Assembly: GCF_013167455.1 (NCBI RefSeq)
Contig: NZ_CP038328.1
Length of the DNA stretch: 64,000 bases
Origin: Escherichia coli O157:H7
GTDB taxonomy: Bacteria > Pseudomonadota > Gammaproteobacteria > Enterobacterales > Enterobacteriaceae
Reading direction: 5' to 3' (one strand)
In this document: positions 3,199 to 58,749 of the stretch, one piece after another
Layout: every line of letters begins with the position of its first letter
How positions within the stretch are numbered: position 1 is the first letter of the stretch
Notes under the pieces: model-generated
Told to the model about the DNA's origin: nothing
The model's database searches: none
What the model saw: the letters and a program-made list of their open reading frames with translations, nothing else
Made by a program: the position numbers and the translations under genes

Positions 3199-5130
3199 TC
3201 AAATGGGGCGGATACTGTCTTCATCCAGCTCCGCATCGAAGAACCGACGCAGGGTCTGAATATTATTATCCGCAATAATGGACTCGCGCGCCTGCGCAAG
3301 TTTTTCTTCGTATATCGCCTGACGCCACTCCAGCGGCGTACGCACCGCGGGATTATCATCTTCAACTATAGTCAGTTCAACCGTTGAACCTTTTAACATG
3401 CTCAACGCTTCAGCCAGTTTTTGCTGTGCACCGCGGTTGTTCAAATGCCGCTGAGAGGAGCGCAAATGCAGACATACTGCGTTGTCGCTCTCCTCTTTCC
3501 AGGCATTTAACGCCACCTGTTCGACCAGTTTTGGTAGCGAAAGTTGACTCACCTGAGCCGCCCACGCGTCGCGCTCAATGGCTTCTGCCGCCAGCTTCGC
3601 CGCCAGTTCCGGCGTTTTTTCATGTTCCAGCGCTTTTTTCAGCGCCTTCGGTGTGGCGACCACTTCTTTTTGCTGCATCACTGGAGTGGTCGCCTTCCAG
3701 CGATACGCTTCTTTTTTAGCTGGCGCTTTTTCCAGCGCCGATGGCACCGGACGCGCCTGAACGCGATCGGTGACCGAAGCCAGTCTTTCCAGCGCAGCGT
3801 TATTCACCGGCCGCGCGCGGGTAGCGGCTGCCGGTTCACTCTTTTTTGCTTTGGTTGCTCCCTGCACGCGCTGCAACTGCTGGCGCGCCGCCAGCACCTG
3901 GCTGGTGGTTTCCGGGAGCGGTACAGTCGGTGCCTGCTGCGGCGCTGATTGCGGTTGCGGCGGCACCTGGGTTGGCGTCATTACTGCCGTTGGCGCGACG
4001 GGTGCAAAGGACTGGCGTGGCACTTCTGGCTCAGGCAGCGGCATACGCGGATGGAACGCCAGCGCGCGCAGCAGCGTCATCTCAACGCCCATGCGGCGGT
4101 CCGGCGCATACGGTAATTCTTTGCGACCAATCAACAGCGTCTGATAGTAAAGCTGAATATCCGTCGGCGGTATGGTGCGCGCCAGTTCACGCATCCGCAG
4201 CTCGATGGCGGCCATGTCGTTGCCAAGTGCAGCAGGCGAAAGTTGTACCATCGCAATACGATGCAACAGGCCGAGCATTTCCACCAGCAACGCTTCCCAC
4301 TCGATACCACGGGCAGCGGCTTCATTAATCAGCGCCATTACGCGCTCGCCGTTGGCCTCGACCATCGCTTCAACCAGCGACAGCGCCTGATCGTCGTCAA
4401 GCGTACCCAGCATCGCACTGACCGCCTGGGTTGAAACCTGGCCGTCACCGCTGGCAATCGCCTGGTCGGTCAGACTTAAGGCATCTCGCAGGCTGCCTTC
4501 AGCGGCGCGCGCCAGCAATTGCAGCGCCCGCGGCTCGTGAGCGATATGTTCTTCATTGAGGATGTGCTCAAGTTGATGACGAATTTGCTCGACATCCAGC
4601 GCCTTGAGATGAAATTGCAAACAGCGCGACAAAATCGTCACCGGCAATTTCTGTGGATCGGTCGTCGCCAGCAGAAACTTAACGTGCTCCGGCGGCTCTT
4701 CAAGGGTTTTTAACAGTGCGTTAAAGCTGTGGCGCGACAGCATATGCACTTCGTCGATGAGATAAACTTTGAAACGACCACGCGCCGGAGCGTACTGGAC
4801 GTTATCCAGCAGGTCGCGGGTATCTTCAACTTTGGTGCGCGAGGCGGCGTCGATTTCAATCAGATCGACAAAGCGCCCCTGCTCGATTTCACGACAGTTA
4901 TCGCACACGCCGCACGGCGTCGCGGTAATGCCGGTTTCGCAGTTTAGCCCCTTCGCCAGCAGTCGGGCGATAGAGGTTTTTCCGACGCCACGGGTGCCGG
5001 AAAAAAGATAAGCATGATGAATACGCCCTAACGACAAGCCGTTCGCCAGTGCGGTCAGCACATGTTCCTGGCCGACGACGTCAGCAAAGGTTTGTGGGCG
5101 CCATTTTCGGGCTAAGACCTGATAACTCAT
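3199..5130 (-). CDS. dnaX: DNA polymerase III subunits tau/gamma, 643 aa (tau)
   Basis: MSYQVLARKWRPQTFADVVGQEHV..., AAA+ Walker motifs; internal frameshift site present. Confidence 0.97.
   Translation of the reverse strand: MSYQVLARKWRPQTFADVVGQEHVLTALANGLSLGRIHHAYLFSGTRGVGKTSIARLLAKGLNCETGITATPCGVCDNCREIEQGRFVDLIEIDAASRTKVEDTRDLLDNVQYAPARGRFKVYLIDEVHMLSRHSFNALLKTLEEPPEHVKFLLATTDPQKLPVTILSRCLQFHLKALDVEQIRHQLEHILNEEHIAHEPRALQLLARAAEGSLRDALSLTDQAIASGDGQVSTQAVSAMLGTLDDDQALSLVEAMVEANGERVMALINEAAARGIEWEALLVEMLGLLHRIAMVQLSPAALGNDMAAIELRMRELARTIPPTDIQLYYQTLLIGRKELPYAPDRRMGVEMTLLRALAFHPRMPLPEPEVPRQSFAPVAPTAVMTPTQVPPQPQSAPQQAPTVPLPETTSQVLAARQQLQRVQGATKAKKSEPAAATRARPVNNAALERLASVTDRVQARPVPSALEKAPAKKEAYRWKATTPVMQQKEVVATPKALKKALEHEKTPELAAKLAAEAIERDAWAAQVSQLSLPKLVEQVALNAWKEESDNAVCLHLRSSQRHLNNRGAQQKLAEALSMLKGSTVELTIVEDDNPAVRTPLEWRQAIYEEKLAQARESIIADNNIQTLRRFFDAELDEDSIRPI
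3841..3847 (-). promoter_or_regulatory. dnaX programmed -1 ribosomal frameshift heptamer A-AAA-AAG (codons 429-430), giving gamma ending ..KKE-stop
   Basis: Plus strand CTTTTTT at 3841-3847; minus-strand reading GCA AAA AAG AGT GAA gives AKKSE, and the -1 frame gives GAG TGA; GC-rich hairpin just downstream on the minus strand (about 3808-3838). Confidence 0.85.
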
Positions 5131-20490: not shown

Positions 20491-20604
20491 GGGTGGGGGC
20501 CCTGCCAGCTACATCCCGGCACACGCGTCATCTGCCTTGGCTGCTTCCTTCCGGACCTGACCTGGTAAACAGAGTAGCGTTGCGGGAGAACCAACAGAGC
20601 CCCC
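20491..20604 (-). ncRNA. ffs: 4.5S RNA (signal recognition particle RNA), 114 nt
   Basis: Minus-strand sequence begins GGGGGCTCTGTTGGTTCTCCCGCAACGCTACTCTGTTTACCAGGTCAGGTCCGGAAGGAAGCAGCCAAGGCAGATGACGCGTGTGCCGGGATGTAGCTGGCAGGGCCCCCACCC; lies between ybaA and atl as in E. coli; terminator hairpin and A-run on plus strand at about 20461-20490. Confidence 0.93.
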
Positions 20605-21892: not shown

Positions 21893-22753
21893 ATGAGTCA
21901 GGCGCTAAAAAATTTACTGACATTGTTAAATCTGGAAAAAATTGAGGAAGGACTCTTTCGCGGCCAGAGTGAAGATTTAGGTTTACGCCAGGTATTTGGC
22001 GGCCAGGTCGTGGGTCAGGCCTTGTATGCTGCAAAAGAGACCGTCCCTGAAGAGCGGCTGGTACATTCGTTTCACAGCTACTTTCTTCGCCCTGGCGATA
22101 GTAAGAAGCCGATTATTTATGATGTCGAAACGCTGCGTGACGGTAACAGCTTCAGCGCCCGCCGGGTTGCTGCTATTCAAAACGGCAAACCGATTTTTTA
22201 TATGACGGCCTCTTTCCAGGCACCAGAAGCGGGTTTCGAACATCAAAAAACAATGCCGTCCGCGCCAGCGCCTGATGGCCTGCCTTCGGAAACGCAAATC
22301 GCCCAATCGCTGGCGCACCTGCTGCCGCCAGTGCTTAAAGATAAATTCATCTGCGATCGTCCGCTGGAAGTCCGTCCGGTGGAGTTTCATAACCCACTGA
22401 AAGGTCACGTCGCAGAACCACATCGTCAGGTGTGGATCCGCGCAAATGGTAGCGTGCCGGATGACCTGCGCGTTCATCAGTATCTGCTCGGTTACGCTTC
22501 TGATCTTAACTTCCTGCCGGTAGCTCTACAGCCGCACGGTATCGGTTTTCTCGAACCGGGGATTCAGATTGCCACCATTGACCATTCCATGTGGTTCCAT
22601 CGCCCGTTTAATTTGAATGAATGGCTGCTGTATAGCGTGGAGAGCACCTCGGCGTCCAGCGCACGTGGCTTTGTGCGCGGTGAGTTTTATACCCAGGACG
22701 GCGTACTGGTTGCCTCGACCGTTCAGGAAGGGGTGATGCGTAATCACAATTAA
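21893..22753 (+). CDS. tesB: acyl-CoA thioesterase II, 286 aa
   Basis: Internal start [47 protein letters not shown].. Confidence 0.95.
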
Positions 22754-22801
22754 AAAAATAGCCGGAGGTGAAAACCGTCCGGCTGTTTTTTGCAGTGCTT
22801 G

Positions 22802-24088
22802 TTATGCGTTATAGGCATTCTCGCCGTGACTGTTGACGTCCAGCCCTTCTCGCTCTTGTTCTTCCGGCACACGCAGACCAACCGTCAGATCCGCCAGTTT
22901 GTAGCCGATAAATGCCACCACACCAGACCACACAATCGTAATGGCAATGCTTTCCAACTGTACCAGCAACTGATGGCCCATCGTCACACCTTCAGCGAAG
23001 CCCACGCCGCCCAGCGAGCTGGCGGCAAAAATCCCAGTCATGATACAGCCGACAATGCCACAAACGCCGTGCACACCGAAGACATCGCAGGGATCATCCA
23101 CCCGCAGCAAGCGTTTGAGCATGGTAACGCCCCACAAGCCCGCCAGACCAGCTACCACGCCGATAATCAACGCGCCGCCAACACCAATGTAGCCACACGC
23201 TGGCGTCACGCCGACCAGACCGGCAATCGCGCCAGAACACGCTCCCAGCAGTGAAGGCTTACCACGCAGCGCCCATTCACCGAAGATCCAGCCAAGAATT
23301 GCCGCCGCCGTTGCGACCACAGTATTCACAAATGCCAGTGCCGCGATTTCATTCGCCGTGCCCGCTGACCCGGCGTTAAAGCCAAACCAACCGATATAGA
23401 GAATGGCAGTCCCGGTGAAGACCATCGGCAGGTTGTGCGGTTTAAACGCCTCTTTACCGAAGCCCACGCGTTTGCCTATCAGATACGCGCCCACCAGACC
23501 GGCGATTGCGGCGTTAATATGCACCACCGTGCCACCCGCGAAATCCAGCGCACCGTGAGAAGCCAGCAAACCACCGCCCCACACCATATGCGCAATAGGA
23601 ATGTAAGAGAGCGTCAGCCATACCACCACGAAAATCAACACAGCTGAGAAGCGGATTCGTTCCGCCAGCGCCCCAACTATCAAGCCTACGGTAATGCAGG
23701 CAAACGATCCCTGAAACGCTACGTGGATATACTGATAAATGCTGCCCATCACCGCCGTCAGTTCGATGTTTTTCAGCATCAACCAGTTAATGTTGCCGAA
23801 GAAGTTGTTGCCCTCACCAAACGCCAGCGAGTAACCGTAAACCACCCAGAGAATACAGACCAGTGCAAACGTCACCGTCACCTGCGTCAGCATCGACAGC
23901 ACGTTTTTGCCGCGAATCAACCCACCGTAAAACAGGGCAATCCCCGGAATAGTCATAAACAGCACCAGTGCAGTACAAATCATCATAAACGCATTGTCGG
24001 CTTTATCGGCCACCGCAGGTGCAGCCATTACCAGTCCCGGCAGCATCGCCAGTGAAGCAAGCCCAGTTTTTATCGTCGCTATCTTCAT
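22802..24088 (-). CDS. amtB: ammonium transporter AmtB, 428 aa
   Basis: Signal peptide followed by 11 TM helices; MKIATIKTGLASLAMLPGLVMAAPAVADKADNAFMMICTALVLFMT.. Confidence 0.97.
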   Translation of the reverse strand: MKIATIKTGLASLAMLPGLVMAAPAVADKADNAFMMICTALVLFMTIPGIALFYGGLIRGKNVLSMLTQVTVTFALVCILWVVYGYSLAFGEGNNFFGNINWLMLKNIELTAVMGSIYQYIHVAFQGSFACITVGLIVGALAERIRFSAVLIFVVVWLTLSYIPIAHMVWGGGLLASHGALDFAGGTVVHINAAIAGLVGAYLIGKRVGFGKEAFKPHNLPMVFTGTAILYIGWFGFNAGSAGTANEIAALAFVNTVVATAAAILGWIFGEWALRGKPSLLGACSGAIAGLVGVTPACGYIGVGGALIIGVVAGLAGLWGVTMLKRLLRVDDPCDVFGVHGVCGIVGCIMTGIFAASSLGGVGFAEGVTMGHQLLVQLESIAITIVWSGVVAFIGYKLADLTVGLRVPEEQEREGLDVNSHGENAYNA

Positions 24089-24117
24089 TTTTCGTTCCTG
24101 TTGCTGTGTGCCAGAGA

Positions 24118-24456
24118 TTACAGCGCCGCTTCGTCGGCTTCGCCGGTACGAATACGAATGACGCGTTGCAATTCAGCGACGAAGATTTTGCCGTCGCCAA
24201 TTTTTCCGGTGTAAGCCGCCTTACTGACGATATCGATCACTTCATCGAGTTGGTCATCAGCAATCGCCACATCAATTTTTACTTTTGGCAGGAAGTTGAC
24301 GCTGTATTCCGCCCCCCGGTACAGCTCGGCATGCCCTTTCTGACGCCCGAAACCTTTCACTTCGGTGACGGTCAGGCCCTGAATACCAATGGAAGATAAC
24401 GCTTCACGAACGTCTTCCAGCTTGAATGGTTTGATTATCACGGTCACCAGCTTCAT
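24118..24456 (-). CDS. glnK: nitrogen regulatory protein PII-2 GlnK, 112 aa
   Basis: Internal start MKLVTVIIKPFKLEDVREALSSIGIQGLTVTEVKGFGRQKGHAELYRGAEY (PII T-loop) inside the 158-aa ORF. Confidence 0.96.
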   Translation of the reverse strand: MKLVTVIIKPFKLEDVREALSSIGIQGLTVTEVKGFGRQKGHAELYRGAEYSVNFLPKVKIDVAIADDQLDEVIDIVSKAAYTGKIGDGKIFVAELQRVIRIRTGEADEAAL

Positions 24457-24508
24457 AGATCCCCTCCGGTCAGAATTCGGTAATGGTTCTGCTACACGAA
24501 GAAGGTAT

Positions 24509-24524
24509 TGCAAGCGGTGTGCCA
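24509..24524 (-). promoter_or_regulatory. sigma54 (-24/-12) promoter for glnK-amtB: TGGCACACCGCTTGCA on minus strand
   Basis: Exact match to TGGCAC-N5-TTGCA, about 55 nt upstream of the glnK start; NtrC-like TGCAC half-sites further upstream (about 24575-24600). Confidence 0.8.
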
Positions 24525-24636
24525 GAAATGAAAAACGAGAAAGAGAGCAGGAAGTTAAGAAGATTGAAAATGAAAACGCACTATGACAGTGCACAGTGCG
24601 TTACATTTTTGCACCAACGATGAGATATTGCGCTAT

Positions 24637-28183
<3,547 letters not shown>

Positions 28184-38177: not shown

Positions 38178-38260
38178 AGAGCTCTCTCTTAGTTTAATTT
38201 CCGCCAGGTAATCAGATGACACGACTGTGCTTCACGCCATCTATTAACATGTACGTCAGT

Positions 38261-38289
38261 ATATGGGGATGTTTCCCCCACATTCAACG
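38261..38289 (-). promoter_or_regulatory. sigma32-type promoter upstream of lon (-35 TTGAATG, -10 CCCCATAT on minus strand)
   Basis: Minus-strand GTTGAATGTGGGGGAAACATCCCCATAT about 85-110 nt upstream of the lon start; clpX terminator hairpin GGGGAG..TCCCCC nearby at about 38312-38331. Confidence 0.6.
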
Positions 38290-38364
38290 CCGAGAATAGA
38301 GGAAAAATTAAAGGGGAGATAAAATCCCCCCTTTTTGGTTAACTAATTGTATGGGAATGGTTAA

Positions 38365-40388: not shown

Positions 40389-40632
40389 TTCCGTCTCCTG
40401 GATAAAATTGAAAAAACCTGCTGTACCGATTGTAACCTTATGGACGGATTATCAGCTAGTCCCTGTGTTATGGGTACGGCATCACCATATTTCAAGCATA
40501 ACAATCTTTTGTTGTTACGCTAACACCGAAAGAGGCTTTTCGCACGGTTCCATGCAAAATTCATGACAAAAAAAGCCCACCACCTGGCGGTGACGGGCCT
40601 TTGTGCGAATTTAGCGCGTTATGCTGCGTAAA

Positions 40633-56886: not shown

Positions 56887-58749
56887 ATGAGTTTTGATAT
56901 TGCCAAATACCCGACCCTGGCACTGGTCGACTCCACCCAGGAGCTACGACTGTTGCCAAAAGAGAGTTTACCGAAACTCTGCGACGAACTGCGCCGCTAT
57001 TTACTCGACAGCGTGAGCCGTTCCAGCGGGCACTTCGCCTCCGGGCTGGGCACGGTCGAACTGACCGTGGCGCTGCACTATGTCTATAACACCCCGTTTG
57101 ACCAATTGATTTGGGATGTGGGGCATCAGGCTTATCCGCATAAAATTTTGACCGGACGCCGCGACAAAATCGGCACCATCCGTCAGAAAGGCGGTCTACA
57201 CCCGTTCCCGTGGCGCGGCGAAAGCGAATATGACGTATTAAGCGTCGGGCATTCATCAACCTCCATCAGTGCCGGAATTGGTATTGCGGTTGCTGCCGAG
57301 AAAGAAGGCAAAAATCGCCGCACCGTCTGTGTGATTGGCGACGGCGCGATTACCGCAGGCATGGCGTTTGAAGCGATGAATCACGCGGGCGATATTCGTC
57401 CTGATATGCTGGTGGTCCTCAACGACAATGAAATGTCGATTTCCGAAAATGTTGGCGCGCTTAACAACCATCTGGCGCAGCTGCTTTCCGGTAAGCTTTA
57501 CTCTTCACTGCGCGAAGGCGGGAAAAAAGTTTTCTCTGGCGTTCCGCCAATTAAAGAGCTGCTCAAACGTACCGAAGAACATATTAAAGGCATGGTGGTG
57601 CCTGGCACGTTGTTTGAAGAGCTGGGCTTTAACTACATCGGCCCGGTTGACGGTCACGATGTGCTGGGGCTTATCACCACGCTGAAGAACATGCGCGACC
57701 TGAAAGGCCCGCAGTTCCTGCATATCATGACCAAAAAAGGTCGTGGTTATGAACCGGCAGAAAAAGACCCAATCACCTTCCACGCCGTGCCTAAATTTGA
57801 TCCCTCCAGCGGTTGTTTGCCGAAAAGTAGCGGTGGTTTACCAAGCTATTCAAAAATCTTTGGCGACTGGTTGTGCGAAACGGCAGCGAAAGATAACAAA
57901 CTGATGGCGATTACTCCGGCGATGCGTGAAGGTTCCGGCATGGTCGAGTTTTCACGTAAATTCCCGGATCGCTATTTTGATGTAGCGATTGCCGAGCAAC
58001 ACGCGGTGACCTTTGCCGCCGGTCTGGCGATTGGTGGCTACAAACCGATCGTGGCAATTTACTCCACCTTCCTGCAACGCGCCTATGATCAGGTGCTGCA
58101 TGACGTGGCAATTCAAAAACTCCCGGTCCTGTTCGCCATCGACCGCGCGGGCATTGTTGGTGCTGACGGTCAAACCCACCAGGGCGCTTTTGATCTCTCT
58201 TACCTGCGCTGCATACCGGAAATGGTCATTATGACCCCGAGCGATGAAAACGAATGTCGCCAGATGCTCTATACCGGCTATCACTATAACGATGGCCCGT
58301 CAGCGGTGCGCTACCCGCGTGGCAACGCGGTCGGCGTGGAACTGACGCCGCTGGAAAAACTACCAATTGGCAAAGGCATTGTGAAGCGTCGTGGCGAGAA
58401 ACTGGCGATCCTTAACTTTGGTACGCTGATGCCAGAAGCGGCGAAAGTCGCCGAATCGCTGAACGCCACGCTGGTCGATATGCGTTTTGTGAAACCGCTT
58501 GATGAAACGTTAATTCTGGAAATGGCCGCCAGTCATGAAGCACTGGTTACCGTAGAAGAAAACGCCATTATGGGCGGTGCAGGCAGCGGAGTGAACGAAG
58601 TGCTGATGGCCCATCGTAAACCAGTACCCGTGCTGAACATTGGCCTGCCGGACTTCTTTATTCCGCAAGGAACTCAGGAAGAAATGCGCGCCGAACTCGG
58701 CCTCGATGCCGCCGGTATGGAAGCCAAAATCAAGGCCTGGCTGGCATAA
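56887..58749 (+). CDS. dxs: 1-deoxy-D-xylulose-5-phosphate synthase, 620 aa
   Basis: [66 protein letters not shown].. (TPP-binding transketolase-like). Confidence 0.97.

Follow-up and report, generated by a model that had tools for sequence, protein, structure and literature searches.

glnKp in the mdlB-glnK intergenic region of Escherichia coli O157:H7: the sigma54 promoter of the glnK-amtB operon and its probable NtrC sites

The 180 bp that separate mdlB from glnK in Escherichia coli O157:H7 (24457-24636, minus strand) are almost certainly glnKp, the sigma54-dependent and NtrC-activated promoter of the glnK-amtB operon. Coordinates refer here to the window, which is the whole stretch of DNA that was analysed (64,000 nucleotides of contig NZ_CP038328.1). 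As a promoter glnKp is already known and belongs to the textbook cases of NtrC/sigma54 control; its occupancy by sigma54 and by NtrC, as well as the dependence of glnK mRNA on NtrC, have been shown by others in E. coli on identical K-12 sequence. The identification is carried by a -24/-12 element that is the only exact one in the window, that is conserved before glnK at every orthologous locus retrieved, and that coincides with a published sigma54 binding site.

The -24/-12 element and its locus

The sequence TGGCACACCGCTTGCA at 24524-24509 on the minus strand is the sole exact match to TGGCAC-N5-TTGCA on both strands of the 64-kb window, where 0.05 matches are expected according to dinucleotide shuffles (5 of the 100 shuffles had one). 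When one mismatch is accepted the pattern falls to chance level (2 found versus 2.1 expected in the window), and the second of these matches falls within a 620-aa ORF and reads GA at -12 in place of GC. The significance of the element rests, therefore, on the exactness of the match together with its position and orientation before glnK. In the 17-mer CTGGCACACCGCTTGCA (24509-24525, minus strand) the GG (24523-24522) and GC (24511-24510) doublets are one helical turn apart, and the element is intergenic and points at glnK. Taking the GC doublet as -13/-12, we predict that transcription starts at about 24498 (minus strand, +/- 2 nt), 42 nt before the glnK ATG, in agreement with the prediction in PMC4591121. 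The leader that results (24457-24497, minus strand) carries the Shine-Dalgarno sequence GGAGGGG (24467-24461), which is separated from the ATG by 4 nt. The first-pass annotation had described an exact -24/-12 element at the correct distance from glnK; the element stands, but the argument from distance does not, because sigma54 promoters have no fixed distance to the start codon.

The published data on sigma54 and NtrC binding come from K-12 or NCM3722 strains, and comparison with the known E. coli promoter, which had been proposed as a check, showed that the window 17-mer is letter-for-letter the K-12 glnK site found by sigma54 ChIP-seq and by genomic SELEX. In the ChIP-seq study the same motif lies in the peak of site OS03, with glnK as the downstream gene, a FAT value of 18, a PSSM score of 10.5 and 42 bp between the predicted start and the gene (Bonocora et al., PMC4591121), and the same 17-mer was recovered by genomic SELEX with the RpoN holoenzyme (Shimada et al., PMC8743547). 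In 2015 EcoCyc still listed the glnK promoter as 'predicted' (PMC4591121).

The minus-strand gene order is decR, mdlA, mdlB, glnK and amtB, and tesB is convergent on the plus strand. The intergenic region is bounded on its 5' side by the TGA stop codon of mdlB (24637-24639, minus strand) and is followed by glnK, coding for the 112-aa PII protein WP_000780338.1 (24118-24456, minus strand, according to the ORF list, RefSeq and Pfam). After a 29-nt gap comes amtB, the second gene of the operon (22802-24088, minus strand), and the operon ends at a hairpin with a T7 run located 3' of amtB (22752-22791, minus strand, detected by sequence and fold), which is common to the operon and the convergent tesB and folds at -17.9 kcal/mol (z = -5.2). 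The glnK-amtB pair was kept at all the orthologous loci that we retrieved, and the mdlB-glnK-amtB synteny in all those from Enterobacteriaceae, Serratia and Hafnia. Two genes on the same strand, the gap of 29 nt, the constancy of the pair and a terminator after amtB bear out the operon assignment that had been made from the sequence.

A segment of 601 bases round the promoter is 100% identical to several E. coli O157:H7 genomes in sequence comparison. Among 5426 complete E. coli genomes, 5423 contain it once, and the annotation at the match is mdlB and glnK in each of them. A look-up of the exact E. coli GlnK protein found Escherichia contigs only, all of them with this 180-bp spacer, and these served for the study of polymorphism; the only intergenic difference seen was at 24624, where the window has C and 15 other Escherichia genomes have T. 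No Rfam RNA family was found in the mdlB-glnK intergenic region.

Orthologous spacers were collected from E. albertii, E. whittamii and other Escherichia, from an Enterobacter-like group, and from Salmonella enterica and S. bongori, and further from Citrobacter koseri, Klebsiella pneumoniae, K. aerogenes, Serratia, Hafnia, Leminorella, Orbus and Phaseolibacter. A scan of the genome collection with a degenerate DNA pattern for the glnK N-terminus gave 10 loci only, and the intermediate genera were reached by protein search, cluster listing and exact-protein look-ups. TGGCA[CT]-N5-TTGC[AT] precedes glnK at every orthologous locus, from Escherichia through Orbus and Phaseolibacter. An alignment of 8 genomes leaves as invariant parts GCAC-N7-GTGC with the TTTT next to it, TGGCA-N6-TTGC and the Shine-Dalgarno region; the leader block is conserved, and the DNA between enhancer and promoter cannot be aligned and varies in length among genera. 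A conserved dyad and a conserved -24/-12 element around an unconserved spacer form the pattern that one would expect an enhancer and a -24/-12 promoter to leave.

With regard to the leader, a length of 40-53 nt is predicted for 10 further taxa, taken at the level of genus to species, and in the distant genera the sigma54 motif ends 37-63 nt before the ATG; the 42-nt leader of E. coli is simply typical.

The NtrC dyad, the hairpin that overlaps it and the CT-rich block

The main candidate for NtrC binding is the dyad TGCACTGTCATAGTGCG (24577-24593, minus strand), whose centre is at -87 from the predicted start. Read from 24593 to 24577, TGCACtgtcataGTGCG agrees at 10/14 positions with the NtrC consensus TGCACCAnnnTGGTGCA, which was used for scoring as restated in PMC8743547. 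Judged by the scores over the whole window, 180 bp should contain about 0.09 sites of at least 10/14 and about 0.46 of at least 9/14. The pattern TGCAC-N7-GTGCA with one mismatch is not enriched in the window (4 found versus 3.6 expected). Besides the 10/14 dyad at -87, scoring against the consensus returned two candidates of 9/14 in the spacer. As the E. coli sites (10/14 and 9/14) are weak matches, only modestly above chance and not individually significant, their weight comes from cross-species conservation and from published binding data.

In each genus the NtrC-like site with the highest score is the orthologue of the -87 dyad, which reaches 11-13/14, with 13/14 in S. enterica (TGCACCGTCATGGTGCA) and K. 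pneumoniae (TGCACCGTTGTGGTGCA), 12/14 in K. aerogenes, 11-12/14 in Hafnia, and 11/14 in Serratia, C. koseri and the Enterobacter-like genomes. In nitrogen-starved cells a 39.7-fold NtrC ChIP-seq peak was found at glnK-amtB, and glnK mRNA, a standard NtrC-dependent read-out, is lost in a glnG deletion (Brown et al., PMC4066584); furthermore, the mdlB/glnK spacer was recovered by genomic SELEX with NtrC (Shimada et al., PMC8743547). The published ChIP-seq interval (471741-471821; PMC4066584) covers the promoter and leader rather than the dyads, an offset that fits either the resolution of ChIP or looping and that does not pinpoint the sites.

The same DNA could have a second function. A terminator-like hairpin, AACGCACTGTG-CACTGT-CATAGTGCGTT followed by TTCATTTTCA (24565-24602, minus strand, detected by pattern scan and fold), begins 35 nt past the stop codon of mdlB and shares sequence with the main NtrC dyad, its 3' arm being the right half of that site. 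The TGCAC dyad might then double as the intrinsic terminator of mdlAB, the 11-bp hairpin (24602-24575) and its U-rich tract blocking read-through into glnK, a reading to which we give slightly less than an even chance. The terminator pattern was found twice in the scan against 0.6 expected, and the hairpin folds at -14.4 kcal/mol by itself and at -23 kcal/mol in its 81-nt context (z = -3.4, 0 of 200 shuffles as good), but a palindromic NtrC site has dyad symmetry anyway and obtains hairpin potential for free. The T-run directly 3' of the dyad is invariant in the 8 genomes and extends to T8-9 in the Enterobacter-like ones; on the other side, the U-tract is broken (UUUUCAUUUUCA), the stem is moderately GC-rich, and an insertion in one Escherichia lineage (L007) has removed the T-run while the dyads were retained. 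Substitutions in the stem preserve pairing in E. albertii and the Enterobacter-like genomes (a double change from T-A to C-G, and G.T to A-T), whereas in Salmonella and Klebsiella the upstream arm is unconserved and the short palindrome alone folds, at -8 to -9.5 kcal/mol.

The genomic context is in favour of this terminator function. In Escherichia, Salmonella and the Enterobacter-like genomes the hairpin is the only terminator-like element of the mdlB-glnK spacer, and Serratia and Hafnia have a separate canonical terminator immediately 3' of mdlB; Serratia is without a T-run after the NtrC site and Hafnia retains one (GGTGCAGTTTTG / GGTGCGTTTTTG). Klebsiella presents an additional GC-rich hairpin with a T-run that ends at about -35, abutting the -24 element. 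Two Term-seq supplements list neither an mdlB 3' end nor any other entry for mdlB or glnK, and a literature search on mdlB, glnK and terminator returned nothing relevant.

A different kind of insulation has been described for this promoter. In read-through transcripts glnKp silences translation of the downstream gene by means of CT-rich anti-Shine-Dalgarno segments, and for this a 7-nt CT-rich region with its centre at -4 is required (Levy et al., bioRxiv 10.1101/086108). This region is present here as CCTTCTT (24505-24499), within the CT-rich block CCTTCTTC (24498-24505, minus strand, -7 to +1), for which in-silico pairing predicts an anti-Shine-Dalgarno role in line with that study (bioRxiv 10.1101/086108). 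In our foldings the glnK Shine-Dalgarno sequence is largely free in RNA that begins at +1 (mean unpaired probability 0.45-0.59) and is paired with 24504-24498 in RNA that begins upstream (unpaired probability 0.00-0.01), so that the block is predicted to sequester it in read-through RNA only. The same contrast is predicted in E. albertii, C. koseri, the Enterobacter-like genomes and S. enterica, and is predicted to be weak or absent in K. pneumoniae, S. bongori and Hafnia. Mononucleotide shuffles of the CT-rich upstream 60 nt still sequester the Shine-Dalgarno sequence (mean unpaired probability 0.08), and as the shuffles keep most of the sequestration, the effect is due to pyrimidine richness and not to a specific arrangement. 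The tests of Levy et al. used a synthetic RBS and mCherry, whereas the pairing with the native glnK Shine-Dalgarno sequence described here is an in-silico result. Two superimposed layers may insulate the operon against mdlAB read-through, namely the terminator-like hairpin over the main dyad and the CT-rich anti-Shine-Dalgarno block before +1.

A probable second NtrC site and the geometry of the enhancer

TGCAC-containing dyads upstream of the promoter had been read, in the plural, as NtrC sites. This holds for the main dyad, and the second site is more likely a half-site of the form TGGTGCA located 33 bp upstream of it. Two candidates have to be weighed. One is ATCTCATCGTTGGTGCA (24610-24626, minus strand), a weak distal site of 9/14 with its centre at -120, in which the right half, TGGTGCA, is perfect and the left half is poor. 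The other is TGCAAAAATGTAACGCA (24597-24613, minus strand), with its centre at -107 and 20 bp from the main dyad, which we deem the less likely of the two and improbable as the second NtrC site. Its consensus score is equal (9/14), it has one mismatch to the genomic SELEX core GCAnnAnnnTnnTGC and it is invariant within Escherichia, but outside Escherichia and Citrobacter it is not conserved (Salmonella and Klebsiella included), the consensus T at position 11 is gone in the Enterobacter-like genomes, and the conservation of 24613-24597 may stem from its role as the 5' arm of the hairpin plus an A-tract.

Escherichia, C. koseri, the two Klebsiella species and the Enterobacter-like genomes, instead, all carry the TGGTGCA half-site 33 bp upstream of the main dyad. 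This fixed offset, kept in five genera, reproduces the spacing of glnAp2, where the NtrC sites are at -140 and -108, three helical turns apart (PMC1865078), and it is the reason why the -120 half-site is favoured over the -107 candidate; from these comparisons, the -120 half-site is likely to be the second NtrC site.

The pyrimidine-rich DNA between enhancer and promoter (24525-24574, minus strand), poorly conserved in sequence and variable in length, is the part that would have to loop. The distance from the enhancer to the promoter is 87, 97, 109, 117/118, 129 or 142 bp depending on the lineage, and these distances keep a helical phase (R of about 0.8, Monte-Carlo p of 0.003-0.008), in a set of few and not fully independent lineages. 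Such conservation of phase would fit looping that depends on the face of the helix, for which it is supportive only.

Start codon, mechanism and relation to known promoters

The first-pass annotation had also assigned to glnK a product of 112 aa instead of the 158-aa ORF that is open in the same frame (24594-24118), and this assignment is correct. The Pfam P-II profile (PF00543, E = 1.4e-31) aligns with its positions 1-102 on residues 47-152 of the 158-aa ORF, profile position 1 falling on residue 47, which is the ATG at 24456. As the P-II domain starts at residue 47, GlnK has 112 aa, in agreement with RefSeq and with all the orthologues. That the longer frame is translated as such, into a PII protein extended at its N-terminus, is extremely improbable: the frame is open and public entries of 158 aa exist for some E. 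coli genomes (cluster P0001, 16 sequences), but the extension has no domain match, its GTG start falls within the main NtrC dyad, 96 nt before the predicted +1, it covers the dyad, the spacer and the promoter, all upstream of the start site, the sequence upstream of the glnK ATG is not conserved as protein, and the strong Shine-Dalgarno sequence GGAGGGG precedes the internal ATG. The 158-aa GlnK was rejected on these grounds. Because the miscall is present in public databases, the warning given in the earlier annotation was apt.

Equally remote is the view that the sigma54 motif is a chance or non-productive site and that glnK is transcribed by mdlAB read-through or from a sigma70 promoter, since, although many E. 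coli sigma54 ChIP sites are intragenic or non-productive (PMC4591121), this one has an exact core (0.05 expected), is intergenic and correctly oriented and is kept from Escherichia to Orbus, glnK mRNA depends on NtrC (PMC4066584), the orthologous Salmonella promoter fusion depends on sigma54 and on nitrogen (PMC3844500), the Shine-Dalgarno sequence is predicted to be sequestered in read-through RNA, and a pattern scan of 24000-24800 found no sigma70-like promoter; published results already contradict this view, and both the chance motif and the sigma70 promoter were rejected.

The preferred reading, a sigma54 promoter activated by NtrC, would work as follows. RNA polymerase with sigma54 would sit as a closed complex on TGGCAC-N5-TTGCA (24524-24509) and, when nitrogen is limiting, phosphorylated NtrC would assemble on the upstream enhancer, formed by the main dyad at -87 and, most likely, by the weaker site of half-site type at -120. 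NtrC would reach the polymerase by looping the pyrimidine-rich spacer and would spend ATP to open the promoter, and transcription would begin about 42 nt before the glnK ATG (24456), cover glnK and amtB and end at the hairpin that the operon has in common with tesB.

This element is the same as glnKp of E. coli K-12, the glnK-amtB promoter reportedly described by van Heeswijk et al. in 1996 and Atkinson et al. in 2002, the latter said to be the primary paper on the mapping of the glnK promoter. The sigma54 17-mer is identical, the mdlB, glnK and amtB neighbours are the same, and so is the predicted 42-nt leader; the two differ by strain-level polymorphism only (at 24624).

Among other nitrogen-regulated promoters, glnAp2 of E. 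coli is similar in having a -24/-12 promoter and NtrC sites about three turns apart (33 bp here versus 32 bp there), and its -108/-140 enhancer and that of glnKp are in the same helical phase relative to the promoter. In glnKp, however, the enhancer is closer (-87/-120) and its sites are poorer (10/14 and 9/14), one of them being essentially a half-site, and glnAp2 has an overlapping sigma70 promoter, glnAp1, and 'governor' sites, both of which glnKp lacks. In the literature glnKp is described as a 'simpler' promoter that requires more NtrC-P. The glnKamtB promoter of Salmonella Typhimurium (STM0462) is orthologous and lies in the same mdlB-glnK spacer; it carries a sigma54 ChIP-chip site, and nitrogen limitation raises the activity of its fusion from 1.1 to 1778 Miller units in a sigma54-dependent way (PMC3844500). 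Its dyad, TGCACCGTCATGGTGCA, is the orthologue of the -87 site of E. coli but is near-perfect (13/14) and located at -117, its leader has 52 nt, and the upstream TGGTGCA half-site is degenerate.

For annotation, the gain is the confirmation of the 112-aa glnK start, of the glnK-amtB operon and of its control by nitrogen starvation, and nothing scientifically new is added on glnKp itself. What is mildly new is comparative only: the two-site enhancer with 33-bp spacing, the conservation of helical phase and the possibility that NtrC operator and mdlAB terminator overlap. With respect to the latter, we propose, tentatively and somewhat short of an even balance, that in Escherichia, Salmonella and Enterobacter the NtrC operator (as DNA) is at the same time the mdlAB terminator stem (as RNA) and makes up with the anti-Shine-Dalgarno block a two-layer insulator that silences glnK-amtB, and that Klebsiella, Serratia and Hafnia, which have a separate canonical terminator, may have relaxed both layers.

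The NtrC dyad, the glnK leader and the Shine-Dalgarno

The region downstream of mdlB contains a terminator-like hairpin followed by a T-run (24565-24602, minus strand), 35 nt past the mdlB stop codon, and the 3' arm of this hairpin coincides with the main NtrC dyad of glnKp, the sigma54-dependent promoter of glnK-amtB. The T-run showed no change in any of the enterobacterial genomes in the comparison (8/8). Immediately 5' of the predicted glnK transcription start there is a CT-rich block (24498-24505, minus strand), and folding predicts that the native glnK Shine-Dalgarno (24461-24467, minus strand) would pair with it only in read-through RNA, where its predicted probability of being unpaired was 0.01 vs 0.45 otherwise. 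This predicted pairing agrees with the published glnKp insulator, for which the published tests used synthetic RBS only (bioRxiv 10.1101/086108). The leader block CCATTACCGAATTCTGAC (24469-24486, minus strand), located 5' of the Shine-Dalgarno, is kept in genomes of Escherichia, Citrobacter, the Enterobacter-like group and Klebsiella, a conservation that exceeds what a plain leader needs.

Other elements of the window and the GlnK start codon

Site OS02, a weak sigma54 ChIP-seq site upstream of clpP (PMC4591121), is unchanged in the window as TTGTCATGAATTTTGCA (40553-40569, minus strand). A sigma54-like motif with one mismatch, TGGCACGTTGTTTGAA (57603-57618, plus strand), lies within a 620-aa ORF (56887-58749); its -12 position reads GA, not GC, and it is probably meaningless. 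Rfam matches at gathering level were found for the sraA sRNA (38249-38344, plus strand), the dnaX frameshift element (3802-3866, minus strand) and the 4.5S/SRP RNA, ffs (20500-20596, minus strand). Regarding the coding sequence, the 158-aa "nitrogen regulatory protein P-II" (P0001) present in public databases for some E. coli genomes is the product of an over-extended GTG start, and the same error seems to lie behind many metagenomic GlnK calls, at 140-190 aa.

Variation at orthologous glnK promoters

The putative distal NtrC site has a weak left half, and in it position 24624 is C in the window vs T in all the other Escherichia genomes sampled (15/15); this C is probably a lineage SNP. In Escherichia sp. 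E1V33, an insertion of ~180 bp (L007:2690-2870) made of repeat elements of high GC content, with the hairpins CCCTCTCCC...GGGAGAGGG, separates the NtrC dyads from the glnK sigma54 promoter. It takes the place of both the CT-rich spacer and the T-run, and it increases the enhancer distance ~2x. Two Klebsiella loci carry a GC-rich canonical hairpin with a T-run (L035:600-626 and L036:601-625) that ends ~35 nt 5' of the predicted glnK start and abuts the -24 element. This hairpin is an extra terminator, with the enhancer on one side and the promoter on the other.
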